Part shown: piece by piece, positions 11,977 through 25,298 of the stretch
How the letters are laid out: the number at the start of each line of letters is the position of its first letter
Position numbering within the stretch: position 1 is the stretch's first letter
From: Caulobacterales bacterium
GTDB lineage: Bacteria; Pseudomonadota; Alphaproteobacteria; Caulobacterales; Caulobacteraceae
Direction: 5' to 3'
NCBI GenBank assembly: GCA_947474395.1
Contig: CANJID010000001.1
Location: 18,083 to 82,082 of the forward strand
DNA length: 64,000 bases
Translations under genes and position numbers: made by a program
The notes under the pieces: generated by a model
Told to the model about the DNA's origin: nothing
The model's database searches: none
What the model saw: the letters and a program-made list of their open reading frames with translations, nothing else

Positions 11977-12679
11977 CCGTCCCGTCGTCTACCTGCTGCC
12001 CGGCCTGCTCTGCGACGACATCGTCTGGGAGCCGCAGGTGCGTAGCCTCGGGGCCGACTACGACATCCGTATCCCGAAGTTCTTCGGCTTCGATTCGCTT
12101 GCGGCCATGGCCCGCTCGGTGCTGGCGACGGCCCCCGCCCGCTTCTCCATCGCCGGCCATTCCATGGGGGGCCGCGCCGCCATGGAGGTCTTCCGCCTCG
12201 CCCCCGAGCGGATCGAGCGCCTGGGCCTGATGGACACCGGCGTCCACACCGTGCGCGACCATGAGCCGGAGCGCCGCGCGGCCCTGACCGCCCTCGGCTA
12301 CGAGAAGGGCATGGGAGCCGTGGCCGACGCCTGGATCCCGCCCATGATCCACCCCGACCACCTCTCCGACACCGCCATGATGGACGCCCTCCGGGCCATG
12401 GTGATGCGCGCAACGCCTGAAATCTTCGAAGGCCAGCAGAAGGCCCTGCTGGAGCGCCCCGACGCCGGCCCGCTCCTCCCCACCATCGCCTGCCCCACCA
12501 TGGTCCTGTGTGGCCGCCAGGACGCCTGGAGCCCCTTCTCCCACCACGTCGAGATCGCCGCCGACATCAAGGGCGCCGTCCTGGTCCCCATCGAGGACAG
12601 CGGACACATGGTCACCATGGAGCAGCCGCAAGCCGTGAACGCCGCCTTGCGGGCCTGGCTGGAAACGGGAGCGCGTTAG
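11960..12679 (+). CDS. Alpha/beta-fold hydrolase
   Basis: 239 aa, GTG start. Nucleophile elbow IAGHSMGG and C-terminal SGHMVTMEQP. Overlaps the ligB-like stop by 17 nt. Confidence 0.75.
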   Translation: MKTLPDRPVVYLLPGLLCDDIVWEPQVRSLGADYDIRIPKFFGFDSLAAMARSVLATAPARFSIAGHSMGGRAAMEVFRLAPERIERLGLMDTGVHTVRDHEPERRAALTALGYEKGMGAVADAWIPPMIHPDHLSDTAMMDALRAMVMRATPEIFEGQQKALLERPDAGPLLPTIACPTMVLCGRQDAWSPFSHHVEIAADIKGAVLVPIEDSGHMVTMEQPQAVNAALRAWLETGAR

Positions 12680-12717
12680 ACGAAAGTGTGAGCGGTTTCG
12701 CCGCTCGAACGCGCTCC
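12668..12717. repeat. 50-nt structured dispersed repeat, copy 1
   Basis: GGAGCGCGTT...GAGCGG-TTTCG-CCGCTC...AACGCGCTCC. 49/50 identical to the reverse complement of 58728-58777. Its first 12 nt supply the last codons and the TAG stop of the hydrolase gene. Confidence 0.85.
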
Positions 12718-12732
12718 GAGCATCTAAGCGAT

Positions 12733-12768
12733 GGAATGTTCAAGGGGTAGAAACCCCTTGAACATTCC
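12733..12768. repeat. Perfect 16-bp inverted repeat (hairpin)
   Basis: GGAATGTTCAAGGGGT-AGAA-ACCCCTTGAACATTCC with no T tract. Lies between the hydrolase and SnoaL-like genes. Confidence 0.8.
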
Positions 12769-12844
12769 GAGGTGCGGTAGGGGTTGGCGGTCATGGCCGC
12801 CGCCGTCTAGGTTCGCTCCGGACAACCACCGGAGAACAAGAAAA

Positions 12845-13291
12845 ATGGCCGACCTGTCGCCCCTGGACCGCCTGGTCATCGAATCCGAATGCACCCGGCT
12901 CGTCTATCGCTACGCCGGCCTGAACGACGCCGGGGACTATGTGGGGGTGGCCGATCTCTTCACGGCGGACGGGTCCTTCGCCCGCCCGACCGCCCCGGAA
13001 ACGCCCCTGGTCGGGCGCGACGTGATCCGCGCCGCCTTCGCCGCCCGACCCAAGGGACGGATGAGCCGGCACATCGTCTCCAACGTCATCATCGAGGTCG
13101 AGAGCGAGACCCTGGCGCGGGGGACCAGCTACATCCTGCTGTTCACCGCCGCCGCCCCGGAGAGCGGGACCGCCAAGGCCGATCCGGTGCAGCTGGTCGG
13201 CGGCTTCTCCGACACCTTCGCCAAGGAAGACGGCATCTGGAAGTTCAGGCAGCGCCAGGGCTCGGTGTCGCTGTCCAGCGGCGGGAGCTGA
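12845..13291 (+). CDS. SnoaL-like / NTF2-fold protein
   Basis: 148 aa from an internal ATG (MADLSPLDRLVIESECTRLVYRYAGLNDAGDY...). The pattern is typical of the SnoaL_4 family. Confidence 0.65.
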   Translation: MADLSPLDRLVIESECTRLVYRYAGLNDAGDYVGVADLFTADGSFARPTAPETPLVGRDVIRAAFAARPKGRMSRHIVSNVIIEVESETLARGTSYILLFTAAAPESGTAKADPVQLVGGFSDTFAKEDGIWKFRQRQGSVSLSSGGS

Positions 13292-13294
13292 CGC

Positions 13295-13342
13295 ACTCTT
13301 CCCCCTCTGGGGTAAGTACGCCCGAAGGGCGGGAAGGGGGCT
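13295..13342. repeat. Family-A REP/MITE-like element, half copy
   Basis: ACTCTTCCCCCTCTGGGGTAAGTACGCCCGAAGGGCGGGAAGGGGGCT matches the left arms of the elements at 17318 and 36823. It fills the convergent intergenic gap. Confidence 0.8.
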
Positions 13343-13961
13343 ACCGCCGCGGCGCGGTCCCAGGCACCGGCGCGCCCGATGCGCCCGGCGTTCCCGGCGT
13401 CCGGGGCATGGTCAGCCGCAGCGTCATGCCGCGATAGACTTCGACCCGGTCCATCACCACCATGTCCTCGGCGCCGGTCTGGCCCGGATGGGCGCGGGCG
13501 ATCAGGAAGTAGGCGCCGTCCGGCAGGTCCCGGAAGGTGAAGCTGTTCTGGGCGTCGCACTTCTCCGAGCGCACGAACTGGGCGTACTCGGGCGGGGCCG
13601 GGGTGGTGCGGGCGCGCACCTCGGTGACCGAGCGGATCGCTTCCACGTCCGAGCCGTAGAGCGAGACGATGCGGTCGCGGGAGTAGCGGGTCTGCGGCGT
13701 CAGCCCGACGTCGAGGCCGGCGCAGCTCCAGGTCCCGCCGGTGCGGGGCCGATAGGCCAGTGTCCCGACGATGCTGTTGGCGCCCCGGCCGACCGACCAG
13801 GCGAAATCGGCGGTGGTGAACTGGGCCGGGCCGACCGGCGCGGGCGGTGGCGGTGGCGGGGGCGGCGGCGTGGTGGCGCAGGCGGCCAAAGTCAGGACCG
13901 CCAGGGCGGGGCCCGCGATCCTGGAAAACCTACCAAAGCTCGAGCCCTTAGCCATCGTCAC
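13341..13961 (-). CDS. Lipoprotein with poly-proline linker, function unknown
   Basis: 206 aa. Lipobox LTLAAC followed by TTPPPPPPPPPAP. The C-terminal beta-rich domain (DLPDGAYFLIARAHPG) is reminiscent of carboxypeptidase-regulatory-like folds. Overlaps the upstream dioxygenase gene by 14 nt. Confidence 0.6.
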   Translation of the reverse strand: MTMAKGSSFGRFSRIAGPALAVLTLAACATTPPPPPPPPPAPVGPAQFTTADFAWSVGRGANSIVGTLAYRPRTGGTWSCAGLDVGLTPQTRYSRDRIVSLYGSDVEAIRSVTEVRARTTPAPPEYAQFVRSEKCDAQNSFTFRDLPDGAYFLIARAHPGQTGAEDMVVMDRVEVYRGMTLRLTMPRTPGTPGASGAPVPGTAPRR

Positions 13962-14763
13962 ACCCGAAACTTGTATTCCACGCCCGGCTTTCGCTCGATG
14001 TCCGGGGGAAGTTGGCGCGCTTCTCGGAAAAGTAGCGCTGGCGGTGGTCTCCGTCGTCGAGACGGTTGTAGGTGAGATAGAGGATGCGCCGCGCGTCCTT
14101 CGTCAAGTTCGGCTTGGAGGCGTGGGGCACATAGGAGTCGAAAAAGATCACGTCGCCGGGTTCCGTGGGCGTCGGGACGAGGTCGAAGCCCGCCATCTCC
14201 GCCGCCGAAAGGGGCCGCCATTCAGGGCCGATCATGCCGGGCAGGCGCGTGACATTGGCCATTTCCAGGCAGCCGTTCTCCATGGTGGCGCGGTCGATCC
14301 CCACCAGGGCCGTGACGAACAGGTCGGCGTAGGTCGACCAGCCGGCCTGCTGGTCCTGGTGCGGCTCGAAGCCGGCGCCGCCCGCCTCCTTGAAGTTGAT
14401 CTTCTCCTTGAAGAGGCATGCCTCCCCGCCGAGCAGCTGGTCGATCGCCCGGGCCAGCCGGCCCTCGCGCACCAGGCCGTCGAAGCCCGGATGATAGGGG
14501 CAGAAGTTCTCGATCCTCTGGATCACCCGCCGGCCGGCCTCGGTCAGGCTGTCCTCGCGGTAGACCATGTGCTCGCCGGGGACCTCCGGGCGTGCGGTCA
14601 GCTCGTCGGTCCAGGCGGCGATGGCCTGCGCCTCCGCTGGGGGGAAGAAGCCGCGCGCCACCACCCAGCCCATCCGCCGGTATTCGGCCATCTGCCGGGG
14701 GTCGAGCGGTCCGCTCAGAGCCTCGGCGTCCTTCATTCGGGTCGGGCGGGTCGGGGCGTTCAT
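13948..14763 (-). CDS. Phytanoyl-CoA dioxygenase (PhyH) family Fe(II)/2-oxoglutarate dioxygenase
   Basis: 271 aa from an internal ATG (MNAPTRPTRMKD...). HxD facial-triad motif FEPHQDQQ, distal His in FFDSYVPHAS, Arg in ARRILYLTY. 7-nt gap after the upstream nucleotidyltransferase. Confidence 0.75.
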   Translation of the reverse strand: MNAPTRPTRMKDAEALSGPLDPRQMAEYRRMGWVVARGFFPPAEAQAIAAWTDELTARPEVPGEHMVYREDSLTEAGRRVIQRIENFCPYHPGFDGLVREGRLARAIDQLLGGEACLFKEKINFKEAGGAGFEPHQDQQAGWSTYADLFVTALVGIDRATMENGCLEMANVTRLPGMIGPEWRPLSAAEMAGFDLVPTPTEPGDVIFFDSYVPHASKPNLTKDARRILYLTYNRLDDGDHRQRYFSEKRANFPRTSSESRAWNTSFGCDDG

Positions 14764-14770
14764 CGGTCGA

Positions 14771-15532
14771 TCATCGATTGGCGAGCTGGGGAAGGATGGT
14801 GTGACGGGCGCGCTCCACGTCGGCCTCGAAATCGATCTCGGTCCAGGGCAGGTCGCTGACATCCACCGCCCCGAAGCGGGCGGGCTCAGCCAGCATCAGG
14901 TCGCGGATGGCCTCCTCGTACTCGACCTTCAGCACCCCCCTGGCGACATAGTCGTCGCACCGGTCCCACAGGGCCGCCGCCGTCGCCGGTGAGAAGTGGA
15001 AGAAGCCCACCGACTCCCCGTGCCAGTCGTGGGCGTGCTCGGGCTTCTTGCGGAAGTCGACGATGGTCTCGCCGCGGAAGCAGATCTTCACCGGCTCGTC
15101 CCCCGGCTCAATCTCGCGGTCCACGAGAAGCGCGTTTTCCGCCGCGCCTTCGAACAGCCGGTCGATCATCCGCGAATCGTAGAGAACGTCGCCATCCATC
15201 AGCAGCACGGGACGGCCGCTCCGCATCAGCTCGCCCTGGGTCCAGAGCGAGACCAGGCTGCCCTCGGTGTAGCGCGGGTTCTCCACGAAATTCACCCGTC
15301 CTGCCTGTCCCAGCCGCTCGACCTCGGCGCGGATTTCCGCCCCGCGATGGCCCAACGTTATAGAGACGTCCCCGACGCCGGCTTCCCCCAGCGCCTCCAG
15401 ATGGCGCTGCAGCAGAGTCTTGCCGTCGAAGCTTAGCAGGACTTTCGGCCCGTCGTGACTGTCGCCCAGCCGGCGGCCTATCCCCGCGGCAAGGATGATC
15501 GCGCCCGCGTCCCTGTGACCCACGGATGACAC
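14771..15532 (-). CDS. LicC-like nucleotidyltransferase (candidate phosphonate/phosphoalcohol cytidylyltransferase)
   Basis: 253 aa. [13 protein letters not shown]...PKVLL signature of sugar/phosphocholine NTP-transferases, and [10 protein letters not shown]. Confidence 0.8.
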
Positions 15533-15654
15533 GCCCGCGATGCTCCTGCTGCATTTCTTCGAGAACGGCGAAGGTTTATAGAGCGGGCTTGCCGCCCCGC
15601 AAGGGGAACGGGCGGGCTTACGCCCCGCCGCAGTGGAAGTGTTGGATTTTCGCC

Positions 15655-17310
15655 ATGCCCCTCGACCAAGCCCGCCAGGGCGCCGCCTCGACCGACAAGG
15701 CCGCCGCGCCCGCCACGCGCTTCGCCGCGCTGCGGCAGGAAATCTTCGGGGACCGGCTGTCCTTCCTGATGGAGGCCCACGACGGCCTCTCGGCCAAGAT
15801 CGTCCAGGAGCAGGGCTTCCGCGGCATCTGGGCCTCGGGCCTGACCATGTCGGCGGCGCTGGGCCTGCGCGATTCGAACGAGGCCTCCTGGACCCAGGTG
15901 CTGGACGTCCTGGAGTACATGTCCGACGCCGTCTCCATCCCGATCCTGGTGGACGGGGACACCGGCTACGGCAACTTCAACAATGTGCGGCGACTGGTGC
16001 GCAAACTCTGCGATCGCGGGATCGCCGGGGTCTGCATCGAGGACAAGCTGTTCCCCAAGACCAACTCCTTCATCGGCGAGGCCCAGCCGCTCGCCGACAT
16101 CGAGGAGTTCTGCGGGCGCCTCAAGGCGGGCAAGGACAGCCAGACCGACGACGATTTCACCATCGTCGCCCGGGTCGAGGCCCTGATCTCCGGGCGCGGC
16201 ATGGAGGAGGCCCTGCGGCGGGCCGAGGCCTATCATTCGGCCGGCGCCGACGCGATCCTGATCCACTCCAAGAAGGCCGTGGCCGATGAGATCTTCACCT
16301 TCTGCGAGCGCTGGGGAAACCGCGCTCCGGTGGTGATCGTGCCGACCATGTACTACGCCACCCCGACCGACCTGTTCCGGCAGGCGGGGGTCTCCACCAT
16401 CATCTGGGCCAACCACCTGCTGCGCTCCTCGATCTCGGCCATGCGCGAGACCGCCCGCCGCATCCACGAGGACCAGTCCCTGGCCGAGGTGGAGGGCCGC
16501 GTCGCCACGGTGAAGGAAATCTTCGGCCTGGTGGGCAACGCCGAGCTGGAGGAGGCCGAGCGCCGCTACCTGCCGGGCGGGGCCAAGACCCGCGCCATCG
16601 TCCTGGCCGCCTCGGGCGGGGACCTGGGCGAACTGACCCGCGACGCCCCCAAGTGCATGATCGATATCCGTGGCCGCTCCCTGCTGCAGCGCCTGGTCTC
16701 CACCCTCAACGAGGGCGGGGTCCGCGAGGTCGCGGTGGTGCGCGGCTATCGCAAGGAGGCCGTCAGCCTGCCCGGCATCGTCACCGTCGACAACGATCGC
16801 TACGCCGAGACGGGCGAGCTCTATTCGCTCTCGACCGCCCGCCACCTGATCGAAGGCGAGACGGTGGTGGCCTATGGGGACGTCCTCTTCCGCAACTTCA
16901 TCCTCGAGAGCCTGATGGGCAGCGGCGCGGACATTGTCCTGGCCGTCGACGCGCTGAACCTGCCGGGCGCCCGCGCCGGGGTGCGCGACCTCGTGGTCGC
17001 CGACCGGGTCTTCTCCGGGGACTACCTCGACGACGCCCCGGTGAGCCTGGTCCGCATGGGCCACGACGTCCTCTCCGAGGCCGCCAGCGGCGAGTGGATG
17101 GGCCTGGCCCGCTTCAGCGCCAAGGGCGCCGAATGGCTCCGCGCCGAGATCGAGGCCATGGAGGCCGAGGGCCTGCTGGAGACCGCCGACCTGCCCTCCC
17201 TTCTGACGCGCCTTGCCGCCAAGCACCCGGTGCGGGTGAAGTACTTCAGCGGCCACTGGATGGACGTCGACAACCTCACCGACCTCGCCGACGCCCGCAA
17301 CTTCACCTGA
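15655..17310 (+). CDS. ppm: Phosphoenolpyruvate mutase fused to a C-terminal nucleotidyltransferase domain
   Basis: 551 aa from an internal ATG. The N-terminal ~300 aa carry [10 protein letters not shown] and [13 protein letters not shown] (PEP mutase EDKxxxxxNS). The C-terminal ~220 aa carry AIVLAASGG...[14 protein letters not shown]...VAYGDVLF (NTP-transferase fold). Confidence 0.9.
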
Positions 17311-17317
17311 GGCTCAC

Positions 17318-17451
17318 ACTCTTCCCCCGCCTGGGGGAAGTACGCCCGAAGGGCGGGAAGGGGGCTGAAGGGCGTTGCGGCCATGGTCGCGCCCTGCGGC
17401 CCCTATCGGCCCGAGGCAAGCTCGGCCCACTTCCCCCAGAGGGGGAAGAGT
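17318..17451. repeat. Family-A MITE/REP-like element, full copy
   Basis: About 22-bp imperfect terminal inverted repeats: ACTCTTCCCCCGCCTGGGGGAAG and CTTCCCCCAGAGGGGGAAGAGT. Each terminus is itself a GC hairpin. Lies in the 234-nt ppm-ppd gap. Confidence 0.8.
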
Positions 17452-17544
17452 TAGGAACGCTCGTCCTCAGCGCCCATTTGCCCTTTCGACTTCGCCGGCC
17501 AAACGCCTTAAATTGCTGATCATTCCAGGGGCAATTCCGACCGC

Positions 17545-18711
17545 ATGATCACCGCAGACGAGTTCATGGCCGAAGCCGGCCGCCGCGGCTTCGACTTCTA
17601 CACCGGCGTGCCGTGCAGCTATCTCACGCCCCTGATCAACGGGGTGCTCTCCAACCGCGCCCTGACCTATGTGGGGGCGGCAAGCGAGGGGGAGGCGGTG
17701 GCCATCGCGGCAGGCGCGTATCTGGCGGGCCGCAAGACGGTCGTGATGTGCCAGAACTCCGGCCTGGGCAACGCGGTCAATCCGCTGACCTCGCTGAACG
17801 CGCCCTTCCGCATTCCGACCCTGTTCATCACCACCTGGCGCGGCCGCCCCGGCGAGCCTGACGAGCCCCAGCACGAGGTGATGGGCCGCATCACCCAGGA
17901 CCTTATCGGCCTGATGGAGATCGAGCAGGCGCCGTTCCCGAACGAGGCGGCGGCCCTCGCCCCCGCCATCGACGCCGCCGTCCGTCACATGGATTCGGCC
18001 TCGCTTCCCTTCGCCTTCGTGATGAAGAAGGGCGACGTCCAGGATGGCGGCCTCGACCAGTCGCCCCTGTCCCGCCCGGCCGCCGGCCGGCGCGAGGACT
18101 TCGCCACCGGCGGCGAACGTCCGGCCCGCGCCGCCGTGCTGACCCGGTTCCTAGAGCTGACCGACGACCGCACCGCCGTCATCGCCACGACCGGCAAGTG
18201 CGGGCGCGAGCTCTTCACCCTCGCCGACCGGGACCAGCACCTCTACCAGGTCGGCTCCATGGGCGGGGCGAGCGGCATGGCCCTGGGGCTGGCCCTCAAC
18301 ACGGAACGCCCGGTGGTCGTGCTCGACGGGGACGGGGCGGCCCTGATGAAGCTCGGGACCTTCGCCACCGTCGGGGCCTACGCCCCGAAGAACCTGCTCC
18401 ACATCCTCCTGGACAACGGCGTGCACGATTCCACCGGGGGGCAGGCGACCGTCTCGGCGTCCGTGGACTTCGCCGCCATCGCGCTGGCCTGCGGCTACGG
18501 CTACGCGGCGTCCTGCGACAGTCTTGAGGGTTTCACTGCAGCCTTCCGCGCCGCCGCTTCGGCTACACGCCCGGCCCTGATCCACATGCGCATGGCCCCG
18601 GGCTCGATCGACAAGCTCGGCCGCCCGACCGTGACGCCCGCGGAGGTCGCCGCCCGCTTCAAGGCCTTCGTCGCCGGGGCGCCGGTCCGCAGCCCCGAGG
18701 CCGTTGCATGA
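17545..18711 (+). CDS. ppd: Phosphonopyruvate decarboxylase (ThDP-dependent)
   Basis: 388 aa. FYTGVPCSYLTPLIN N-terminus, ThDP motif VLDGDGAALMKLG...LDNGVHDSTGGQ. Confidence 0.9.
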   Translation: MITADEFMAEAGRRGFDFYTGVPCSYLTPLINGVLSNRALTYVGAASEGEAVAIAAGAYLAGRKTVVMCQNSGLGNAVNPLTSLNAPFRIPTLFITTWRGRPGEPDEPQHEVMGRITQDLIGLMEIEQAPFPNEAAALAPAIDAAVRHMDSASLPFAFVMKKGDVQDGGLDQSPLSRPAAGRREDFATGGERPARAAVLTRFLELTDDRTAVIATTGKCGRELFTLADRDQHLYQVGSMGGASGMALGLALNTERPVVVLDGDGAALMKLGTFATVGAYAPKNLLHILLDNGVHDSTGGQATVSASVDFAAIALACGYGYAASCDSLEGFTAAFRAAASATRPALIHMRMAPGSIDKLGRPTVTPAEVAARFKAFVAGAPVRSPEAVA

Positions 18712-19697
18712 AGTGGCCGGCCATCCTCGGCATCCTGATCGGCCTTGGCCTGGCGATCACGCTGATCGCCGCCAACGACGTGGGCAAGATCCTGGCCGCC
18801 CTCGTCGGCGCCGGCTGGGGCATCCTCCTGGTGATCGTCCTGCGCCTGCCCCAGACCATCGCGTCCGCGCTCGGATGGCGCGCCCTGGTGGCCGAGCCGG
18901 GCCCCAATATCGCGGTCTTCACCGGCCTGCGCTGGATCCGGGAGGCGGTGAACAACCTCCTGCCGGTGGCCGGAGTCGGCGGCGACGTCGTCCGCGCCCG
19001 CCTGCTCGCCCTCCAGGGCGTCAGCCTGAAGGGGGCCTCGGCCAGCGCCGCGGTGGACCTCAGCGTCGAGATGGCCAGCCAGATCGTCTTCGCCCTGATG
19101 GGCGTCGGCATGCTGCTGCTCTATCGCCCCGGGGTGGACACCCTCGGTTGGGTGCTGGGCGTCATCGGCGTCGGGGCGGTCATCGCCGGCTCCTTCATGC
19201 TCAGCCAGCGCTTCGGCCTGTTCAAGCTGGTGGAGAAGACCCTGGTCGCGGCCTCCGAGAAGGCCGGCTGGGCGGCGCTCGGCGACATCTCCGGCCTGCA
19301 TGAGGCGGTGGTGGCCCTCTACCGCAGCCCCGGCCGCTTCCTCCATTCGGGCGCCTGGCACATGGCGTCCTGGTTCTTCGGCGTGCTCGAGCTGTGGGCG
19401 GCCCTGCATGTGCTCGGGGTCGAGGCCGGGTGGCGCGAGGCCCTGATCATCGAGAGCCTCGGCCAGGCCATCCGCGGCGCCGCCTTCGCCGTGCCGGGGG
19501 CGCTCGGCGTGCAGGAGGGCGGCTACGTCCTGGTCTGCGCCCTCTTCGGCATCCCGCCGCAGCAGGCCATCGCCCTGTCCCTGATCCGGCGCATCCGCGA
19601 CCTCGTCCTGGGCGTGCCGGCCCTCATCGTCTGGCAGCGCATCGAGGGGCGTATGTTCGCCCGCCGCGCCGCTGCATCCGAGGCCGCGCCGTCGTGA
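18708..19697 (+). CDS. Polytopic membrane protein of the lysyl-PG-synthase TM-region/UPF0104 (flippase-like, HpnL-related) family
   Basis: 329 aa, multiple TM helices. RWIREAVNNLLPVAGVGGDVVRARLL motif is typical of the family. ATGA overlap with ppd and GTGA overlap with the transaminase. Confidence 0.7.
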   Translation: MKWPAILGILIGLGLAITLIAANDVGKILAALVGAGWGILLVIVLRLPQTIASALGWRALVAEPGPNIAVFTGLRWIREAVNNLLPVAGVGGDVVRARLLALQGVSLKGASASAAVDLSVEMASQIVFALMGVGMLLLYRPGVDTLGWVLGVIGVGAVIAGSFMLSQRFGLFKLVEKTLVAASEKAGWAALGDISGLHEAVVALYRSPGRFLHSGAWHMASWFFGVLELWAALHVLGVEAGWREALIIESLGQAIRGAAFAVPGALGVQEGGYVLVCALFGIPPQQAIALSLIRRIRDLVLGVPALIVWQRIEGRMFARRAAASEAAPS

Positions 19698-20797
19698 GCG
19701 ACAGCCCGCTCCTCCTCACCCCCGGGCCCCTGACCACGCGGGTCGAGACCCGCCGCGCCATGATGCGCGACTGGGGCTCGCGCGATCCGGCCTTCATCGC
19801 CCTGACCGCCGAGCTGCGCGAGCGCCTGCTGAAGGTGGCGGGCGGGGAGGGGACGCACGTCGCCATCCCCCTCCAGGGCAGCGGCACCTTCATCGTCGAG
19901 GCGGCCGTCGCCTCCATCGTTCCCCCCGAGGGCAAGCTGCTGGTCCTGGCCAACGGCGCCTACGGCGAGCGGATGATCGAGATCGCGCGCCGCATGGGCC
20001 GCGCCGTCGAGGCCCTGCGCTGGGCCGAGGACCGCCCCGTCGAGCCCGGCGCCGTCGCCTACGCCCTGGCCGCCGACCGGGACATCACCCACGTCGGCCT
20101 GATCCACTGCGAGACCACCACGGGCCTGCTCAATCCGCTGCAGGCGATCGCGCAGGCGGTGTCCGACGCCGGCCGGAGCCTGATCCTGGACGCCATGTCG
20201 AGCTTCGGCGCCCTGCCCATCGATCTTCAGACGACCCCGGTCACGGCCCTGCTCGCCTCTTCCAACAAGTGCCTGGAAGGCGTGCCGGGCATCGGCTTCG
20301 CCCTGGTCGACGCCCTCGCCGTCGGCAAGGCCAAGGGGAACAGCCCCTCCCTCAGCCTGGACCTTGCCGCCCAGCACCAGGGTTTCGAGGCCAACGGCCA
20401 GTGGCGCTTCACCCCGCCGGTCCAGGTGGTCGCCGCGGCCGTGGAGGCCCTGCGTCTGCTGGAGGCCGAGGGCGGCCCACGCATGCGCCTCTCCCGTTAC
20501 CAGGCCAATTTCGATACCCTCGCCGTCGGCATGCTGCGGCTGGGCTTCCCGCTCTACCTCGATCCCGGCCTGCAGGCGCCCATCATCGCCACCTTCCTGC
20601 CGCCCACGGATCGGGCATTCGCCTTCGAGCGGCTGTACGCGGGACTGGCGCAAAGAGGTTTTCTGATCTATCCGGGGAAATTGACGCAGGCGGAAAGCTT
20701 CCGCATTGGTTGTATAGGCGCGCTTGAGCCTGCGGATTTTGCTAGGTTGCTCGTAGCAATAGAGGCGGTCGCCGTCGAAATGGGCCTCTCGGCCTGA
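19694..20797 (+). CDS. phnW: 2-aminoethylphosphonate:pyruvate aminotransferase (PhnW/AepZ type)
   Basis: 367 aa from an internal GTG (VSDSPLLLTPGPLTT...). Class V aminotransferase with PLP lysine in SSNKCLEG. Confidence 0.88.
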   Translation: MSDSPLLLTPGPLTTRVETRRAMMRDWGSRDPAFIALTAELRERLLKVAGGEGTHVAIPLQGSGTFIVEAAVASIVPPEGKLLVLANGAYGERMIEIARRMGRAVEALRWAEDRPVEPGAVAYALAADRDITHVGLIHCETTTGLLNPLQAIAQAVSDAGRSLILDAMSSFGALPIDLQTTPVTALLASSNKCLEGVPGIGFALVDALAVGKAKGNSPSLSLDLAAQHQGFEANGQWRFTPPVQVVAAAVEALRLLEAEGGPRMRLSRYQANFDTLAVGMLRLGFPLYLDPGLQAPIIATFLPPTDRAFAFERLYAGLAQRGFLIYPGKLTQAESFRIGCIGALEPADFARLLVAIEAVAVEMGLSA

Positions 20798-20811
20798 AAC
20801 AACTTGTAACA

Positions 20812-21324
20812 GTGAGCCGGATGCTCAAGTTTTTCGCCATCACTGCCGTCCTGGCCACCCTGGTCTCTTCGCCCGCCGCGGCGGAGACCGGGCCGATCAG
20901 AGACATGGCCGCCGGCCTGAAGCGCCTGGTCGCCGCCGGCGCGCCCGGCGACGACGCCGCGCCGCTGCAGATCGTGGTCTGGAACCTGAAGAAGGCGCTG
21001 GGCACCGTGCGCGTGGCCATCTGCACCCCGGCTACCTTCCTGAAGACCGACTGTCCGTGGGAGGGCGTCGCCCAGGCCACGCCCCAGGGCGCGGTGGTGA
21101 CCATCGCCGGCCTGCCGCCGGGGGTCTACGCGGCCCAGGTGTTCCAGGACGAGAACGACAACCACCAGGTCGACCGCAATGTGCTGGGCGTTCCCAAGGA
21201 AGGGGTGGGCTTCTCCAACGACGCCCCAATCCTGCTGAAGGCGCCCAGCTTCGCCGCCGCCTCCTTCGAATATGCGGGCGAGGGCATGACCCTGCGCGTG
21301 AAGCTGCGCCACTTCACGCCGTAA
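20812..21324 (+). CDS. DUF2141 secreted protein
   Basis: 170 aa, signal peptide. QVFQDENDNHQVDRNVLGVPKEGVGFSNDA motif characteristic of DUF2141. Starts 15 nt after phnW. Confidence 0.6.
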   Translation: MSRMLKFFAITAVLATLVSSPAAAETGPIRDMAAGLKRLVAAGAPGDDAAPLQIVVWNLKKALGTVRVAICTPATFLKTDCPWEGVAQATPQGAVVTIAGLPPGVYAAQVFQDENDNHQVDRNVLGVPKEGVGFSNDAPILLKAPSFAAASFEYAGEGMTLRVKLRHFTP

Positions 21325-21375
21325 GCCCCCACCGGCCCGTCATCGTCGGGCTCTTCCTGAGCGACCGGCTTTGCG

Positions 21376-22758
21376 TCAACCGAACAGGGGGACCGGTCCG
21401 CGGCCGCCGCCGTTCCAACTGGCCCAGTTCGGGAACACGTACGGCATGTCCGCCGCAGGGACGCCGAACCGCTGGACCACGCCGCCAAGATATTCCTCCA
21501 GGGCGATCGACGGGATCCAGCGACCGTCGTCGGACGAATCCTCGGGCCCGCGGAACGTCGTATCTGGGTATCGGCCGTGTATCCGGGCCCCGGCGAGTCC
21601 CCCGCCAATCACCAGATGGTTCGACCCCCAGGCATGGTCCGAGCCCGCCTGTGCGTTGCCGCGATAGACCCGGCCGAAGTCCGAGAGGGTGAAGGTGGTG
21701 ACGTCGGCGGCCACGCCGAGCGCTTCCATCGCTTTTTGGAAGGCGGCGAGCGCGGCGGCGAGGGCGGCGTAGAGGTTGGCCTGCCGGCCTGCGGTGTTGT
21801 CGGTCTCGTCGACCTGGCCCGCGTGGGTGTCGTAGCTGCCGTGGCCGGCGAAAAAGATCTGCCGGGCGTGGCCAAGCGCGGACCGGGCTTCGATCAGCCG
21901 CGCGATCCTCAGGAGCTGGGCCGCGATGTCGGTGTTAAGCATAACGCCCTTGGCATCCTTGAAATAGGCGTCGACGGTGGCGGTTCGGGTCAGGATCGCG
22001 TTTGCGGCGAAGGCCTGATCGTAGGCGCGCGAGAAGCCGAGCCCGGTCAGCCGCGTCACCGGTCCCTGGGAGTCCGCGTCGGCGAAGGCGGTCAGGCCAG
22101 CTTGCCTTGCGACCACCACCGCGTCGCGGCTCGAGGCGTCGTAACCGTGGCGCGCGATGCTCCCCGTGGGCGGCAACACCAGGGGAGAGCTTCGCTGGCC
22201 GAGCAGCGCCAGGCTGGAGCCCGCCACCGAGATCAGCGGCGATATCGCGGGCGCGCCGTCCATCCGGTCATTGATGCGGCCCATGAAGCCGTCGACGTTC
22301 ATGGCTCTGGCCTGCAGCCCTTGCCACACATGCTGCTGGCCAGAGTGTGACATCAGGTGCAGGGGGCGCAGGTCCGGCCGCGACAGGTAGAGCCGTCGGT
22401 CGAGCGGCTGGAACAGCACGCCCGTGTTGAGCACGACGTTCAGCGAGCCCTTGTCCCAGAGGGGGCGAAGCGGCGCCAGGCTCGGGTGCAGACCGAAGGG
22501 CGTGCCCGCAAGGGGCTTGAGAGCCTCCCGCGCGAGCGCGAGCTGGGGTCCCCGGCCGGCGGCGTACCCCGCATAGCGGTCGTCGGTCGGCACGATCATG
22601 TTCCAGCCGTCGGCGCCCCCGAAGAGGAAAACGCCGACCATGGCGCGGTAGGGCGCGCGGGTCTGGGCCATGGAGGCCGACCGGCCAAGCTGGGCCAGGG
22701 CGGCCGCTGCCCCCGATCCGGCGGCGAGCCTGACGATGTCGCGGCGGGAGAGGGTCAT
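21376..22758 (-). CDS. DUF1501 protein (sulfatase/alkaline-phosphatase superfamily) with Tat signal
   Basis: 460 aa from an internal ATG (MTLSRRDIVRLAAGSGAAAALAQ, a twin-arginine signal). C-terminal GSDHAWGSNHLVIGG. Confidence 0.8.
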   Translation of the reverse strand: MTLSRRDIVRLAAGSGAAAALAQLGRSASMAQTRAPYRAMVGVFLFGGADGWNMIVPTDDRYAGYAAGRGPQLALAREALKPLAGTPFGLHPSLAPLRPLWDKGSLNVVLNTGVLFQPLDRRLYLSRPDLRPLHLMSHSGQQHVWQGLQARAMNVDGFMGRINDRMDGAPAISPLISVAGSSLALLGQRSSPLVLPPTGSIARHGYDASSRDAVVVARQAGLTAFADADSQGPVTRLTGLGFSRAYDQAFAANAILTRTATVDAYFKDAKGVMLNTDIAAQLLRIARLIEARSALGHARQIFFAGHGSYDTHAGQVDETDNTAGRQANLYAALAAALAAFQKAMEALGVAADVTTFTLSDFGRVYRGNAQAGSDHAWGSNHLVIGGGLAGARIHGRYPDTTFRGPEDSSDDGRWIPSIALEEYLGGVVQRFGVPAADMPYVFPNWASWNGGGRGPVPLFG

Positions 22759-22760
22759 AT

Positions 22761-24455
22761 CTAGCGGTCCACCTGGAACAGAGGCGAGCTGGCGGCGAGG
22801 TACAGGGCGGTCTGGGCCCGTTGGCGCGCCTGCGTCGTCGCGTTCTTGTTGACGATGGCGGTCAGCGCCCCCCGCATGGCGCTGCGCTGCGTCGCGCTCA
22901 TGCCGTTGCCGAGCAGCAGCAGGTTCACGCGGTCCATCAGCCCCTCGACGTCCGCGGCCGCGGCCTCCCAGTCTGCCCACAGGGGCTTCGTGCCCGTGGC
23001 GCTCTGCGTGTGGGGCTTGAACTCCTTGCGGTCGGCATCGCCTTCGACGGTCCAGTCGTAGACGAGGTTGTGCCGGCCGACGTCGGCCGCCGTCGTCAGC
23101 AGCTTCGACGGGGGGCTCACCAGCGGCGCGCCGAGCGGCAGCGGATAGTCCGGCGGATAGAAGTTGAACACCGAGGGCGCGGACCACAGCGGCTGGCCCA
23201 TCACCCCGTCGCGCGTGGTGAAGACGTAGCCGTCCGTGGTCATGCCGATGGCCCGGGCCAGGGCGACGGCCAGCAGCACCGGCTCCTTCACCTTGCCTTC
23301 GATGGCCGCGAGACGGTCCCCGCGCGCCTCCGGGTCGAGCAGGATCGCCCGCACCACCGACCTCATGCTTCCGCGCACGCCCTGGCCGTTGTCGGCGAAC
23401 ACCCGCGCGACCCGTTCGACGTAGGCGGGGGTGGGGTTGGAGACGACGAGCTGCTGGATCAGCGACTTGGAAACATACGGCGCCACGTTGGGGTGGTTGA
23501 AGACCGCGTCCACGACCGCGTCCACGCTTGCGCTCTGGCTTGCCTGGGCGGGGACCGTCACGCCCAGGAAGCTCTTGGCGTCCGCGTCGTAATCCGAGGC
23601 CGAGCGGATCATCCGCTGGGTGTAGTCGATGCGGCTCTTGTCCTTCGGCGACGCCCCGGGGAAGCGCACGCAGGTCCATCCGGTCAGGGCCCGCGCGACT
23701 TCGTGGACGTCGCTGCCGGTGTAGGCCGGTATCGGCGCGCCTTGGACGTCGAGCTTGAGGCTGCCGTCGAGGTTCAGCATGTCCTCGCCGATCGAGAACA
23801 GCTGCATCAGTTCCCGCGCGTAGTTCTCGTTCGGCGAAGCTTTGGTCGACCCCGCCATGTCGAGGTAGTCGCCCATGTACGCGTTCAGGGTGACCGCCTT
23901 CAGCAGGTCCCGGTAGTTGCCGAAGGCGTTGTCCAGCAGCAGCTGGTGATAGGTCGCGAGGCCGGCCGTCGAGTCGATATCCTGGTTGGCGACGACCAGC
24001 AGCTCGGCCAGGGCGAGCGCCACTCTCTGGCGGAGCTGGTCGTTCCGCATGACCGCGTCGGCGTAGAAGCGCATCGCGACCGGCGTCGACTGCCAATAGG
24101 TCGCCTTGCAGCTCGCGGCCTCCGACCCGGATTTCGACCGGCAATAGCTTTGCGGGATATTCCGGTCGGCGATGATGTCCTGGTAGCCGCTCTCGGCGAG
24201 GGCGAACTGCTCGTCCAGCCAGGCGGCGGGTCCCACCTGGCTCATATGCGCGATCAGCGCCGGGGTCGGTCCGAACGTCGCCTGCTTGGCCAGCCGGACC
24301 GCATCGGGAGCGGAAAACGCCGCAACCGTGACGGCCTCGGGCGCCATGAACCGCGGCTCGGGCGGGTTCGCCCCTGTCAGGGCCGCAGCGCCCGCGCACG
24401 CCGCCGCGCAAGCCAGGGCGGAAGCGGCGAGGATCGACGGCGATGGCGACGCCAT
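22761..24455 (-). CDS. DUF1800 protein
   Basis: 564 aa. ...MGDYLDMAGSTKASPNENYARELMQLFSIG... motif of DUF1800. Stop lies 3 nt before the DUF1501 start (a canonical pair). Confidence 0.8.
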   Translation of the reverse strand: MASPSPSILAASALACAAACAGAAALTGANPPEPRFMAPEAVTVAAFSAPDAVRLAKQATFGPTPALIAHMSQVGPAAWLDEQFALAESGYQDIIADRNIPQSYCRSKSGSEAASCKATYWQSTPVAMRFYADAVMRNDQLRQRVALALAELLVVANQDIDSTAGLATYHQLLLDNAFGNYRDLLKAVTLNAYMGDYLDMAGSTKASPNENYARELMQLFSIGEDMLNLDGSLKLDVQGAPIPAYTGSDVHEVARALTGWTCVRFPGASPKDKSRIDYTQRMIRSASDYDADAKSFLGVTVPAQASQSASVDAVVDAVFNHPNVAPYVSKSLIQQLVVSNPTPAYVERVARVFADNGQGVRGSMRSVVRAILLDPEARGDRLAAIEGKVKEPVLLAVALARAIGMTTDGYVFTTRDGVMGQPLWSAPSVFNFYPPDYPLPLGAPLVSPPSKLLTTAADVGRHNLVYDWTVEGDADRKEFKPHTQSATGTKPLWADWEAAAADVEGLMDRVNLLLLGNGMSATQRSAMRGALTAIVNKNATTQARQRAQTALYLAASSPLFQVDR

Positions 24456-24552
24456 GAGCTGACTCCGCCGCTCGTCCTGAGCGGTGACCGCCCCAGACGA
24501 AACTGCGCCGGTTAACCACCGGTAAGCGGAGAGCGACGATTGCTCGTCAGCG

Positions 24553-25143
24553 CTACGGAGCGCGCTGCTTCATCAGGGCGGCGAGGCTCAGCCACAGCGC
24601 TATGGCCGGGGTGATCAGGCTCGCCGCCACCAGCATGGGCTTGATCTGGCCGAGCCAGATCAGGATCGGCACCAGGATCATCAGGTCGTCGGGATCGACG
24701 TCGAAGCGCCCGAACCGCCAGGGCTTCAGCTCCACCAGCTTCCAGACGTTGAGCTGCCAGAACATCACCCCGATGCCGAGGCCGGCGGACACCCCGAGCC
24801 AGACCGCGATCGAGCCCCACACCGGGATCAGGCCGATGCCGATGCCGATGAAGCCCGCCACCCCGGCGATGCAGTCGCAGATCAGGTCGTAGACGTGCCC
24901 GCCCGGGCTGGACTGGCCGGTTTGGCGGGCCAGCTCCCCGTCCGCCCGGTCGAGCAGCATGGAGAGCACGAACACCAGTCCGCCGACGCCGAGCCACAGG
25001 GCCCCGGCCTTGGCGTAACAGACGGCCGAGGCGATCGCGGTGATCAGGCGCAGGGTGGTGATCTGGTTCGGCGTGACCTTGGTCGGGGCGATCGCCCGCA
25101 CCACGGGCCGCACGATCTGGTGGATCACCGTATTGGAGCTCAC
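24553..25143 (-). CDS. CDP-alcohol phosphatidyltransferase family protein
   Basis: 196 aa. Complete DRADGELARQTGQSSPGGHVYDLICD motif (D-x2-DG-x2-AR-x8-G-x3-D-x3-D). 4-5 TM helices. Confidence 0.85.
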   Translation of the reverse strand: MSSNTVIHQIVRPVVRAIAPTKVTPNQITTLRLITAIASAVCYAKAGALWLGVGGLVFVLSMLLDRADGELARQTGQSSPGGHVYDLICDCIAGVAGFIGIGIGLIPVWGSIAVWLGVSAGLGIGVMFWQLNVWKLVELKPWRFGRFDVDPDDLMILVPILIWLGQIKPMLVAASLITPAIALWLSLAALMKQRAP

Positions 25144-25298
25144 GCGGGCGGGTCCTTAGCCTGGGGCGATGGGCGCGCAATGTGTCGAGGCGACAGGACG
25201 ATGACAAGCCCGCCCCTCCCTACGGTCACGGTTGCGAGGCGTGACCGGCTATGCTCTTGAAAGCTCCCGGCCTTTGCCGGCAAAGGCCCTGAGGCGTC

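Follow-up and report, generated by a model that had tools for sequence, protein, structure and literature searches.

A phosphonate biosynthesis gene set beside a hopanoid island in a Caulobacterales bacterium points to a probable membrane phosphonolipid

We analyzed a 64,000-nucleotide stretch of a Caulobacterales contig (CANJID010000001.1; hereafter, the window). Its phosphonate unit extends from about 13948 to 25143 and is interrupted by inserted genes (Table 1). An earlier note, made from the sequence alone, had described a smaller unit at 15655-20797. The fusion ORF, decarboxylase, membrane protein and aminotransferase genes that it reported are real and correctly located, but it missed a divergent operon encoding a PntC-like enzyme and a PhyH-type oxygenase, as well as a CDP-alcohol phosphotransferase.

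Table 1 Features of the phosphonate unit and its borders, in window positions.
Feature	Size	Position	Strand	Remark
PhyH-family Fe(II)/2-oxoglutarate oxygenase	271 aa	13948..14763	-	ATG at 14763; maximal ORF to 14862
Standalone PntC-like cytidylyltransferase	253 aa	14771..15532	-	Divergent from fusion gene
Divergent intergenic region, putative promoter region		15533..15654	.	Between PntC2-PhyH and ppm operons
Ppm::NTP_transf_3 fusion	551 aa	15655..17310	+	PEP mutase residues ~24-307, NTase-like ~311-551
Intergenic gap	234 nt	17311..17544	.	REP-like palindromic element
Phosphonopyruvate decarboxylase Ppd/AepY	388 aa	17545..18711	+	TIGR03297
HpnL polytopic membrane protein	329 aa	18708..19697	+	MprF flippase domain homologue
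2-Aminoethylphosphonate:pyruvate aminotransferase (AEPT/AepZ/PhnW type)	367 aa	19694..20797	+	
DUF2141 secreted protein	170 aa	20812..21324	+	PF09912, E 4.9e-25
CDP-alcohol phosphotransferase	196 aa	24553..25143	-	PF01066, E 7.7e-13
HpnN RND lipid transporter	875 aa	25299..27926	+	Divergent from CDP-alcohol phosphotransferase gene; hopanoid island start

The frame of the fusion gene is unbroken and starts at an ATG that is codon 44 of a 594-aa maximal ORF, and public gene callers give the identical 551-aa product (P0001, 100% identity). Its N-terminal domain matches PF13714 (PEP_mutase, E 6.6e-65), carries the Ppm-specific motif EDKxxxxxNS and has the Mytilus PEP mutase as its closest solved structure (1M1B, E 1.2e-120). 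On TIGR02320 it scored 388.7 bits (cutoff 319.55), vs 136 for PrpB, 97 for carboxy-PEP mutase and 22 for isocitrate lyase, so that the comparison with (methyl)isocitrate lyase and carboxy-PEP mutase suggested earlier rules those families out and leaves a true Ppm. The corresponding check of the C-terminal half returned PF12804 (NTP_transf_3), with matches to LicC (1JYK, E 3.7e-11) and to PntC of Treponema denticola (Tde-PntC; 6PD1, E 2.6e-6). In the loop of this domain, whose family-wide pattern is LAAS[R/G]G..LG..PK, the Arg of GxG(T/S)R is missing, and a Tyr is found where Tde-PntC has Glu104, the acidic amine-binding residue. At least 8000 database proteins share the fused architecture, which is therefore not a chance product, and such fusions make up ~60% of all Ppm proteins (Rice 2019, PMC6697681), so the fusion here is ordinary.

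The next genes complete the route to 2-aminoethylphosphonate (AEP). Ppd scored 429.6 bits on TIGR03297 (cutoff 312.5) and carries TPP_enzyme_N and TPP_enzyme_C, with the GDG...NG ThDP motif read in its translation, and the aminotransferase exceeded every cutoff (PRK13479, 466 bits; TIGR03301, 425; TIGR02326, 419). The reported gene overlaps were confirmed on the sequence, i.e., gcATGAag at 18708-18711 (ppd/hpnL) and tcGTGAgc at 19694-19697 (hpnL/AEPT).

In the divergent operon, the standalone PntC-like enzyme (PF12804, E 1.4e-16) has Tde-PntC as its best solved relative over its full length (residues 11-251 vs 5-239 of 6PD1, E 7.7e-9). It has the canonical loop and keeps the equivalents of Arg15 and Lys25, either of which reduces Tde-PntC activity to <10% when changed to alanine (PMC6697681). 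Because the fused domain is without the catalytic-loop arginine, the standalone enzyme appears from these residues to be the better candidate for the CMP-AEP synthase. The activation step proposed earlier is thus retained but reassigned, as the fused domain also lacks the acidic amine-binding residue and the standalone enzyme has both. The oxygenase (PF05721 PhyH, E 1.1e-22) is matched best in NCBIfam by PhnY*-type methylphosphonate hydroxylase, with a score of 148 bits that is far under the 500-bit equivalog cutoff; HxD (HQD), distal His (VPHAS) and Arg (ARRILY) residues were read in its translation, and it is a candidate C1-hydroxylase of AEP or an AEP conjugate. A direct repeat, GCGGGCTTnCGCCCCGC, is located at 15583-15600 and 15612-15629 in the intergenic region between the divergent operons, where a search for the sigma-70 consensus gave no match.

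The polytopic membrane protein, rightly placed but left without an identity in the earlier note, is HpnL (TIGR03476, 286 bits, cutoff 195.65; PF03706, 110 bits). Its AlphaFold model (pLDDT 89.9, pTM 0.87) retrieved MprF as the top four Foldseek PDB matches (probability 1.0, TMq 0.46-0.55), vs probability <=0.6 and TMq <=0.27 for matches other than MprF. From fold homology only, we propose that HpnL may be the flippase of the lipid product. HpnL homologues also occur with hopanoid but no phosphonate genes (loci L053, L073, L078 and L079), or with neither, and HpnL is therefore not phosphonate-specific. The CDP-alcohol phosphotransferase has the full signature D-x2-DG-x2-AR-x8-G-x3-D-x3-D (DRADGELARQTGQSSPGGHVYDLICD), and its solved relatives include PI synthase (6H53, E 9e-7) and CHPT1/CEPT1 (E 2e-6 to 1e-5); we propose that it uses CMP-AEP as donor and a lipid alcohol as acceptor of the aminoethylphosphonyl group. 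CDP-OH_P_transf domains are fused to HpnL-family proteins in both orders (P0160 and P0244), and in many Acetobacteraceae loci the genes lie adjacent on one strand in the order hpnL-CDPOH-hpnN.

The module borders a complete hopanoid island (hpnN/M, dxs, ispH, hpnH/G, shc, hpnA-E). HpnN, a possible exporter of the product, scored 1158 bits on NF052374 (cutoff 1100), and the HpnN-family gene directly 3' of hpnL-CDPOH that we checked in one Acetobacteraceae locus scored 953 bits on TIGR03480. In the window, as in many related loci, the module is flanked by genes for HpnN, HpnM and an MlaA-like protein. The linkage of module and hopanoid genes recurs in Roseomonas, Inquilinus, Sphingomonas, Mycetohabitans and Salinisphaera, and was not found in Burkholderia cenocepacia.

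We profiled 80 HpnL loci, on contigs at one genome per species, and detected the full Ppm, Ppd and AEPT core in 30. All 30 core loci contained the CDP-alcohol phosphotransferase, 29 the standalone PntC adjoining the AEP core, 29 the fused NTase domain and 21 a PhyH oxygenase. The same seven gene families are present in Burkholderia cenocepacia, Cupriavidus and Mycetohabitans, and the oxygenase slot is filled by PhyH in the alphaproteobacterial version and by a non-orthologous HalD-like enzyme in the beta- and gammaproteobacterial versions. Such a seven-gene core (Burkholderiales_CDP-OH / Group 1 phosphonolipid) has been published with a predicted 1-hydroxy-AEP phosphonolipid, although no member of the cluster family has yielded a characterized phosphonolipid (PMC8942020). 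The locus is probably the alphaproteobacterial form of this "Group 1 / CDP-OH" set, by which an AEP lipid would be made, flipped and exported. The gene set itself is not new, having been catalogued in many bacteria, and the novelty claimed in the earlier note was overrated, given that Ppm occurs most often in this fused form (PMC6697681), the core is published (PMC8942020) and a ppm-shc linkage was noted in Roseomonas (PMC8776678).

The family models support a biosynthetic reading, as first proposed, in which Ppm converts PEP to phosphonopyruvate, decarboxylation by Ppd to phosphonoacetaldehyde draws the unfavourable Ppm equilibrium forward, and AEPT yields AEP, which would then undergo nucleotide activation and be joined to an envelope acceptor. 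The PhyH-type oxygenase may then hydroxylate C1 to give 1-hydroxy-AEP, and the standalone PntC-like enzyme would combine the phosphonate with CTP to form CMP-(hydroxy)AEP; the domain fused to Ppm may contribute to this step, or its role may be different or non-catalytic. At the cytoplasmic face, the CDP-alcohol phosphotransferase would move the phosphonyl head group from CMP-AEP to a membrane-lipid hydroxyl, the default acceptor being diacylglycerol by analogy with CDP-ethanolamine:DAG ethanolaminephosphotransferase. HpnL, translationally coupled within the AEP operon, may carry the product to the outer leaflet, and the neighbouring HpnN, HpnM and MlaA-like (HpnS) proteins may deliver it along with hopanoids to the outer membrane. 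The product is most likely a membrane lipid with a (1-hydroxy-)AEP head group, for which HpnL would be the flippase and HpnN/M/S the exporters. If this reading is true, the embedding of the module in a hopanoid island would reflect a common envelope-lipid programme. Against this scheme, the nearest named relatives of the transferase use CDP-diacylglycerol and inositol(-phosphate), 3.2 kb of inserted DUF1501/DUF1800 genes separate its gene from the operon, and a single activation step leaves two nucleotidyltransferase domains unaccounted for.

It is also conceivable, though doubtful, that the CDP-alcohol phosphotransferase adds the (hydroxy)aminoethylphosphonyl group to the polyol side chain of an extended hopanoid, e.g., bacteriohopanetetrol, with HpnL flipping and HpnN/M/S exporting the product. 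The module lies in or beside hpn clusters across three proteobacterial classes: for Alphaproteobacteria, in the window, Inquilinus and Sphingomonas, and between FPPS and ispH-hpnH-hpnG-shc in Roseomonas marmotae (L088) and Plastoroseomonas (L015); for Betaproteobacteria, in nine Mycetohabitans replicons, where ppm and shc are about 16 kb apart; and for Gammaproteobacteria, in Salinisphaera aquimarina (L065), which has hpnL, pntC, ppm, ppd and aept on one strand between hpnA and hpnH. The presence of hpnL in hpn clusters without ppm suggests a hopanoid-related substrate, fusions of HpnL and the CDP-OH transferase exist, and a "terpene-phosphonate" has been speculated for Roseomonas (PMC8776678) and Nitrosococcus (PMC8942020). 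However, about 1-2 Mb separate the core from shc in four Burkholderia replicons, and Cupriavidus P-10 has no hpn gene within 15 kb, its replicon being absent from the shc matches. Eleven of the 30 core loci have no hopanoid-family gene within 10 kb, and the linkage is mostly to the transporters hpnN/M, with shc or hpnA-H within 10 kb in only six. One HpnL-CDPOH fusion is in a locus without ppm and hpn genes (L086), and the string 'phosphon' is absent from two hopanoid studies that discuss hpnL, one of them a survey of BHP composition in Alphaproteobacteria.

The acceptor, regarded earlier as unreadable from the sequence, can be narrowed in part, since the CDP-alcohol phosphotransferase in 30/30 loci and the MprF-like flippase homologue in the operon favour a lipid over a glycan. 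It is accordingly unlikely that CMP-AEP decorates a polysaccharide, lipid A/core or a surface protein in a LicC/LicD-like manner, even though PntC-type activation was first characterized in putative phosphonoglycan clusters (PMC6697681), AglD-type HpnL relatives are linked to S-layer glycosylation, and two glycosyltransferase genes are encoded at 596-3236. These two are about 10 kb off, past unrelated tannase, ABC-transporter and LigAB genes, and the conserved module has no LicD-like phosphotransferase or glycan-assembly gene alongside its invariant transferase. Another reading, which we consider improbable, is that CDP-diacylglycerol is the donor and the C1 hydroxyl of 1-hydroxy-AEP the acceptor, giving phosphatidyl-hydroxy-AEP, in which the lipid is linked through phosphate and the phosphonate stays free. 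The named families nearest to the transferase do depend on CDP-DAG (archaetidylinositol-phosphate, PIP and PI synthases), and a hydroxyl-making oxygenase recurs in the alpha and beta/gamma modules despite non-orthology; yet one or two conserved cytidylyltransferases would be left without a role, and the oxygenase is absent from nine of the 30 core loci, including Roseomonas, whereas the transferase is in all. A catabolic or salvage locus, a soluble AEP pool or a small-molecule phosphonate natural product is very improbable: the aminotransferase passes the catabolic PhnW model (TIGR02326) and, among named families, the catabolic PhnY* hydroxylase is the one closest to the PhyH enzyme, but Ppm and Ppd belong to biosynthesis, the core is conserved together with three membrane-lipid genes, and, in agreement with the earlier note, phnX, phnA, phnY (ALDH), phnZ and C-P lyase families had no match in the roughly 50 ORFs called in the window, which also contains no phosphonate transporter.

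Two further features accompany the module. The gap between the fusion gene and ppd is 234 nt here vs 9-80 nt in the Roseomonas and Inquilinus loci, and contains a REP-like palindrome, CTTCCCCCAGAGGGGGAAG, at 17430-17448 with a partner at ~17319-17341. This element, which had no match in an Rfam search, is found in three copies in the window vs 0.06 expected and is not part of the pathway. The DUF2141 gene is an accessory one that in some lineages accompanies either the module or hpnN: it adjoins AEPT in Inquilinus as well, and Sphingomonas and Sphingobium have it between dxs and hpnN.

The window has a G+C content of ~70% and many open reading frames (ORFs), and genes were picked by third-position GC content together with family matches. 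The single fused ORF described in the earlier note was recovered as an uninterrupted frame of 551 aa, and the identical protein (database protein P0001) is called on several public metagenome contigs. Its N-terminal 300 residues are the phosphoenolpyruvate (PEP) mutase domain that had been claimed, as they match Pfam PEP_mutase (E = 6.6e-65), and the protein scored 388.7 bits on TIGR02320, above the equivalog cutoff of 319.55. It beat the sister models of the isocitrate lyase (ICL) superfamily, i.e., phosphonopyruvate hydrolase (235.8, below the cutoff of 374.4), PrpB (methylisocitrate lyase; 136.4), carboxy-PEP (CPEP) mutase (97.1), and ICL (21.8), and the much lower scores on the last three place the domain with PEP mutase (Ppm) rather than with the ICL-type enzymes. 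The nearest solved structure is Mytilus PEP mutase (E = 1.2e-120), and the EDKxxxxxNS motif, which is diagnostic of Ppm (PMC6697681), is present in the translation. The C-terminal 250 residues matched NTP_transf_3 (PF12804), LicC (E = 3.7e-11), and PntC of T. denticola (E = 2.6e-6), in agreement with the nucleotidyltransferase (NTase) domain read there before.

Downstream of the fusion gene, the phosphonopyruvate decarboxylase (Ppd) and the 2-aminoethylphosphonate (AEP) aminotransferase (AEPT) proposed earlier were both borne out by family models (TIGR03297, 429.6 bits against a cutoff of 312.5; PRK13479, 466.4 against 296; TIGR03301, 425 against 360.8). The polytopic membrane protein said to lie between them was found, and the ATGA and GTGA overlaps linking the three genes were read directly. 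Family models support a route in which Ppm would convert PEP to phosphonopyruvate, Ppd would yield phosphonoacetaldehyde, and AEPT would yield AEP. None of the ~50 called ORFs of the window matched a phosphonate catabolic family, as the earlier note had stated; the catabolic reading of the locus was rejected, and we conclude that the gene set is real and that the biosynthetic reading is correct.

Four further genes were assigned to the unit, i.e., a second NTP_transf_3 protein, a PhyH-family oxygenase, the membrane protein now identified as HpnL, and a CDP-alcohol phosphotransferase (hereafter, the transferase). CDP-alcohol phosphotransferases share the signature D-x2-D-G-x2-A-R-x7-8-G-x3-D-x3-D, and DRADGELARQTGQSSPGGHVYDLICD, read directly in the transferase, is the full signature. 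The transferase is parted from the AEP operon by a DUF2141 gene and an inserted DUF1501/DUF1800 pair. The pair was rejected as a member of the module because it is missing at that position in all related loci, including those of Inquilinus, Roseomonas, and Sphingobium. In the window and in Inquilinus the DUF2141 gene follows AEPT, whereas in Sphingomonas and Sphingobium its neighbours are dxs and hpnN, between which it lies (comparison loci for both arrangements, L005, L006, and L092), and given this varied position it may be a transport-side rather than a phosphonate-synthesis gene. On the other side of the module, a lipoprotein gene overlaps the end of the PhyH gene; the protein matched no family, none of the related loci has a homologue, and it was rejected as an extra member since it is not conserved outside the source organism. 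The genes upstream of it form an aromatic-catabolism cassette that is unrelated to the phosphonate module.

Features of the phosphonate module and its surroundings (window positions)
Feature	Position	Strand	Remarks
LigA/LigB-type extradiol dioxygenase subunits, alpha/beta hydrolase, SnoaL-like protein	10595-13291		Upstream neighbours
REP-like palindrome, first copy	13298-13316
Lipoprotein, 206 aa	13341-13961	-	Poly-proline linker; overlaps PhyH gene end by 14 nt
All seven published core families	13948-25143
PhyH-family Fe(II)/2-oxoglutarate oxygenase	13948-14763	-	Divergent from fusion gene; nearest named family is phosphonate alpha-hydroxylase PhnY*, far below equivalog cutoff
Second NTP_transf_3 protein, PntC-like (standalone NTase)	14771-15532	-	Divergent from fusion gene; two-gene operon with PhyH oxygenase
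Direct repeat	15583-15600, 15612-15629		29 nt apart
Ppm-NTase fusion	15655-17310	+	551 aa
Fused NTase domain	16585-17310	+	C-terminal part of the fusion
REP-like palindrome, second copy	17430-17448
Ppd	17545-18711	+
ATGA overlap	18708-18711
HpnL	18708-19697	+	329-aa membrane protein
GTGA overlap	19694-19697
AEPT	19694-20797	+
DUF2141	20812-21324
DUF1501 (Tat-signal) and DUF1800 pair	21376-24455	-	Between AEP operon/DUF2141 and transferase
CDP-alcohol phosphotransferase, 196 aa	24553-25143	-	PF01066, 49.5 bits against a cutoff of 22; complete catalytic signature
Hopanoid island	25299-50760		hpnN, hpnM, dxs, FPP synthase, ispH, then hpnH, hpnG, shc, then hpnE/D/C/B/A; complete
REP-like palindrome, third copy	36826-36844
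Two paralogous ~750-aa proteins	50835-53129, 53449-55665	-	Directly after hpnA
MlaA-like lipoprotein and NodT-type outer-membrane factor	55913-58547	-	After the hopanoid island

The composition of the module corresponds to that of a published neighbourhood type. "Burkholderiales_CDP-OH" accounts for 318 of 882 (36%) RefSeq ppm neighbourhoods and is the most abundant type (Microb Genom 2022, PMC8942020), with a core of seven genes, namely those for a Ppm-PntC fusion, Ppd, AEPT, and an Fe/2OG oxygenase, a further PntC gene, and two genes of phospholipid type. The same study equates this type with the Group 1 phosphonolipid clusters of Yu et al. 2013 and predicts a 1-hydroxy-AEP phosphonolipid as its product, which has never been characterised. 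All seven families are present in the window, and tblastn recovered the same seven in the cores of B. cenocepacia, Cupriavidus, and Mycetohabitans, with 34-69% protein identity between the window and Burkholderiaceae for six components. The oxygenase slot is filled by apparently non-orthologous enzymes of different subfamilies, PhyH in the alpha version and HalD/2OG-FeII_Oxy_3 in the beta and gamma versions, and the similarity between the window and Burkholderiaceae oxygenases was not detectable (BLASTP E = 0.13). The gene order also differs: all seven genes are co-linear in Burkholderiaceae (CDPOH, oxygenase, hpnL, pntC, ppm, ppd, aept), whereas those of the window form two divergent operons, in one of which hpnL separates ppd from aept, and the transferase gene has the opposite orientation. 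Moreover, the window module abuts the hopanoid island, which is not the case in Burkholderia proper. The sole chemically known bacterial lipid with the predicted head group is the 1-hydroxy-2-aminoethylphosphonate sphingophosphonolipid of Bacteriovorax stolpii (cited in PMC8942020); its genes fall into a remote gene-cluster family (GCF 761), and it is a ceramide lipid. For carriers of the window module, such a lipid is a prediction.

The fusion itself is ordinary, and the module belongs to a catalogued and very common kind. Roughly 60% of all Ppm proteins carry a fused nucleotidyltransferase, with 33% carrying PF12804 (PMC6697681), and a search with the fused protein of the window at E ≤ 1e-20 gave at least 8000 relatives. 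The top 120 of these all have the same two-domain architecture, are 72-81% identical to it, and are named "phosphoenolpyruvate mutase"; their sources are Roseomonas/Muricoccus, Inquilinus, Caulobacter/Phenylobacterium, Sphingomonas, and Sphingobium. Fom1 of the fosfomycin pathway is likewise a Ppm fused to an NTase that activates a phosphonate intermediate (PMC6697681), but its CyTase domain (PF01467) is N-terminal, its substrate is hydroxyethylphosphonate, and it serves to make a diffusible antibiotic, whereas the window protein has a C-terminal PF12804 domain and is encoded in a lipid-type cluster.

We compared the two NTase domains of the module, both of which belong to PF12804 and match LicC (1JYK) and PntC, with low identity to Tde-PntC (T. 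denticola) and S. pneumoniae LicC (E = 1e-5 to 1e-11). In Tde-PntC, Arg15 and Lys25 of GxG(T/S)R-x4-8-PK are needed for activity and Glu104 touches the AEP amine, and a preference for AEP over phosphocholine, with CTP, is a biochemical property that characterises PntC (PMC6697681). The standalone NTase aligns end to end with Tde-PntC (residues 5-239, E = 7.7e-9), has this signature, and carries Asp at the Glu104 position. The window PntC is not fused to the aminotransferase, unlike its T. denticola counterpart (Tde1415, 6PD1/6PD2). The fused domain, in contrast, retains the PF12804 fold family and the Lys of the signature but departs from it otherwise, with Ser replacing the first Gly, Asp/Leu where Tde-PntC has Arg15, and Tyr where it has Glu104; many of its relatives carry SRG. 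A canonical loop in the standalone enzyme and a degenerate one in the fused domain were likewise found in ~40 species of three classes, over the alpha, beta, and gamma loci that the genome scan gave. The standalone NTase is thus the safer candidate for the CMP-AEP synthase. The fused domain may still be active via compensating residues, but this widespread Ppm-fused domain with its degenerate catalytic loop should not be assumed to be a CMP-AEP synthase.

To profile the genomic context of HpnL, one genome per species was scanned with an alignment of 14 HpnL sequences, which gave 556 confirmed relatives, and the best 80 loci were inspected with 10-kb flanks. HpnL was flanked by phosphonate biosynthesis genes in 39 of these 80 loci, and 30 contained the full core of Ppm, Ppd, and AEPT. 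Among these core loci, the transferase was detected in all 30, the standalone NTase and the fused NTase domain in 29 each, and the PhyH oxygenase in 21. A constant link of HpnL to phosphonate genes was rejected, as 41 of the 80 loci had no such genes, 8 of them with hopanoid-family genes. A rough neighbor-joining tree (no bootstraps) has several HpnL clades without phosphonate genes and places phosphonate-linked HpnLs in three separate parts, one of them a large alphaproteobacterial clade that holds the window HpnL.

Three layouts were distinguished. In the first, seen in the window and in Roseomonas, Plastoroseomonas, Inquilinus, Sphingomonas, and Sphingobium, the PhyH and PntC genes are transcribed away from those for Ppm-NTase, Ppd, HpnL, and AEPT, and the opposite strand encodes the transferase. 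The second, of Acetobacteraceae MAGs, Acidisphaera, and Rhodopila, has hpnL directly followed on the same strand by the transferase gene and then by an HpnN-family RND gene, often with MlaA-like and MlaC-like genes on the other flank. In loci of this second type (L019-L067), e.g., L063 (9884-14124), where the RND gene scored 953 bits on TIGR03480, a second CDP-alcohol phosphotransferase often follows downstream. In the third, found in Gammaproteobacteria such as Salinisphaera aquimarina, hpnA and hpnH bracket hpnL, pntC, ppm, ppd, and aept, which all share one strand. A lichen-associated MAG (L091; NCBI names the fusion protein for Caulobacter sp. S45) has a Mn-catalase gene (6023-6931) between the fusion gene and ppd, and its 12.9-kb contig carries no CDP-alcohol phosphotransferase.

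The window HpnL scored 286.4 bits on TIGR03476 (cutoff, 195.65) and matches Pfam LPG_synthase_TM. By sequence it had no match in the PDB (phmmer, E ≤ 1). Its AlphaFold model (pLDDT 89.9, pTM 0.87) was compared with the PDB using Foldseek, and the only convincing neighbours were four MprF structures (7DUW, 9GOE, 9J8S, and 9J8Q; probability 1.0, TMq 0.46-0.55), the remaining matches having a probability ≤0.6 and TMq ≤0.27. MprF is an aminoacyl-phosphatidylglycerol synthase fused to a flippase domain, whereas HpnL superposes only on the MprF transmembrane region, lacks the aminoacyl-transferase (DUF2156) domain, and shares 15-19% sequence identity with MprF. In other organisms, HpnL-family proteins are fused to CDP-OH_P_transf domains in both orders; the neighbourhood of one such fusion (L086) contains no ppm or hpn genes, and the contig of another (L085) is too short, so that neither informs on the head group. 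Because this fusion parallels the synthase and flippase of MprF, we propose that HpnL translocates the product of the transferase, with fold and gene fusion pointing to a flippase-like protein. HpnL-family domains are also fused to a sulfotransferase, a SAM methyltransferase, and in one case a toxin-37 domain (P0165, P0270, and P0234), a hint that diverse enzymes of head-group modification may partner with this family.

In the hopanoid literature, HpnL is an orphan hopanoid gene product whose function is not known, and phosphonates are not mentioned (bioRxiv 10.1101/2025.07.29.667474; Geobiology 2025, PMC12583986). The window HpnL is of the same TIGR03476 family, with its gene ~6 kb from hpnN and ~24 kb from shc. 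The membrane protein of the B. cenocepacia core also passes TIGR03476 (369 bits), and therefore the gene that hopanoid studies call hpnL and the one that phosphonate studies call the "phospholipid gene" of the seven-gene core belong to a single family. This bridges the two literatures through an MprF-flippase homologue that is elsewhere fused to the transferase.

Taken as a pathway, AEP would be hydroxylated at C1 by the PhyH-type oxygenase and activated with CMP by the standalone PntC, and a lipid alcohol would then receive the phosphonyl head group through the transferase. The lipid product would then be flipped by HpnL and exported by HpnN, HpnM, and MlaA-like proteins. We regard this whole model, i.e., an AEP-headed lipid with flipping and export as described, as reasonably probable. 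The product of the commonest ppm neighbourhoods has never been isolated, and any tractable carrier of the module would offer a route to a missing class of membrane lipids.

Whether hopanoids are themselves involved was considered from the gene neighbourhoods. At least one hopanoid-family gene was found within 10 kb in 19 of the 30 core loci; shc or hpnA-H was present in 6 and hpnN or hpnM in 16. In R. marmotae and Plastoroseomonas, the module interrupts the hpn island midway, and ppm is ~16 kb from shc in all nine Mycetohabitans replicons. On four Burkholderia replicons, the ppm core is ~1-2 Mb from shc, and no hpn gene was found within 15 kb of the core in Cupriavidus P-10, so that an invariable hopanoid linkage of the core was rejected for Burkholderia and Cupriavidus. 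Some hpn clusters that include HpnL lack phosphonate genes altogether (L053, L073, L078, and L079), and other loci with HpnL have neither kind. The linkage between the module and hopanoid genes is real and recurrent, but not obligatory. An shc gene linked to ppm has been noted in several Roseomonas species, with speculation on a terpene-phosphonate (PMC8776678), and searches of the literature for a characterised product or a link between phosphonates and hopanoids turned up speculation alone.

This linkage bears on the first alternative, that a hopanoid is the acceptor of the phosphonyl group, which we consider unlikely, though not negligible. In its specific form, CMP-(1-hydroxy-)AEP and the transferase would phosphonylate the polyol side chain of bacteriohopanetetrol, with HpnL as dedicated flippase and HpnN/HpnM/MlaA-like export, and this we hold to be unlikely. 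If true, phosphono-hopanoids would be a new class of bacterial lipids, i.e., C-P bonded hopanoids, and the orphan hpnL would gain a function. The recurrence of the module inside hopanoid islands of Alpha-, Beta-, and Gammaproteobacteria leads to the testable hypothesis of a phosphonolipid or phosphono-hopanoid that is flipped by HpnL and exported by HpnN/M/S. Decoration of a glycan, lipopolysaccharide (LPS), or protein appears improbable. A phosphatidyl transfer onto the hydroxyl of hydroxy-AEP is in our view quite improbable, and a catabolic or soluble role very improbable. The fusion, the seven-gene core, and the ppm-shc linkage in Roseomonas are already known, and the remaining interest lies in the product of the phosphonolipid core, in hpnL as its flippase-like component, and in the recurrent coupling to hopanoid synthesis and transport in three proteobacterial classes.

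Several observations concern the genes that follow the hopanoid island. Each of the two ~750-aa paralogues has an N-terminal part like the C-terminal part of the protease SapA and a serralysin/RTX-like C-terminal part, and they may be secreted or S-layer-associated. The MlaA-like lipoprotein is what the Belin preprint calls "HpnS", and genes of this type are likewise found beside the phosphonate module in Acetobacteraceae loci without shc within 10 kb (L019, L027, L033, L036, and L063).

Intergenic regions of the module were also inspected. A REP-like palindrome, CTTCCCCC-N3-GGGGGAAG, occurs in three copies in the window (0.06 expected by chance), and the copy at 17430 sits in the gap between the fusion gene and ppd, accounting for its unusual length of 234 nt. 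An Rfam scan of 13000-26000 (E ≤ 1) gave no match, with no riboswitch or leader in this gap, and scans for sigma-70 promoters and terminators gave nothing over the shuffled expectation. In the divergent promoter region between the PntC-PhyH and ppm operons, the direct repeat GCGGGCTTnCGCCCCGC possibly represents a binding site for a putative regulator.
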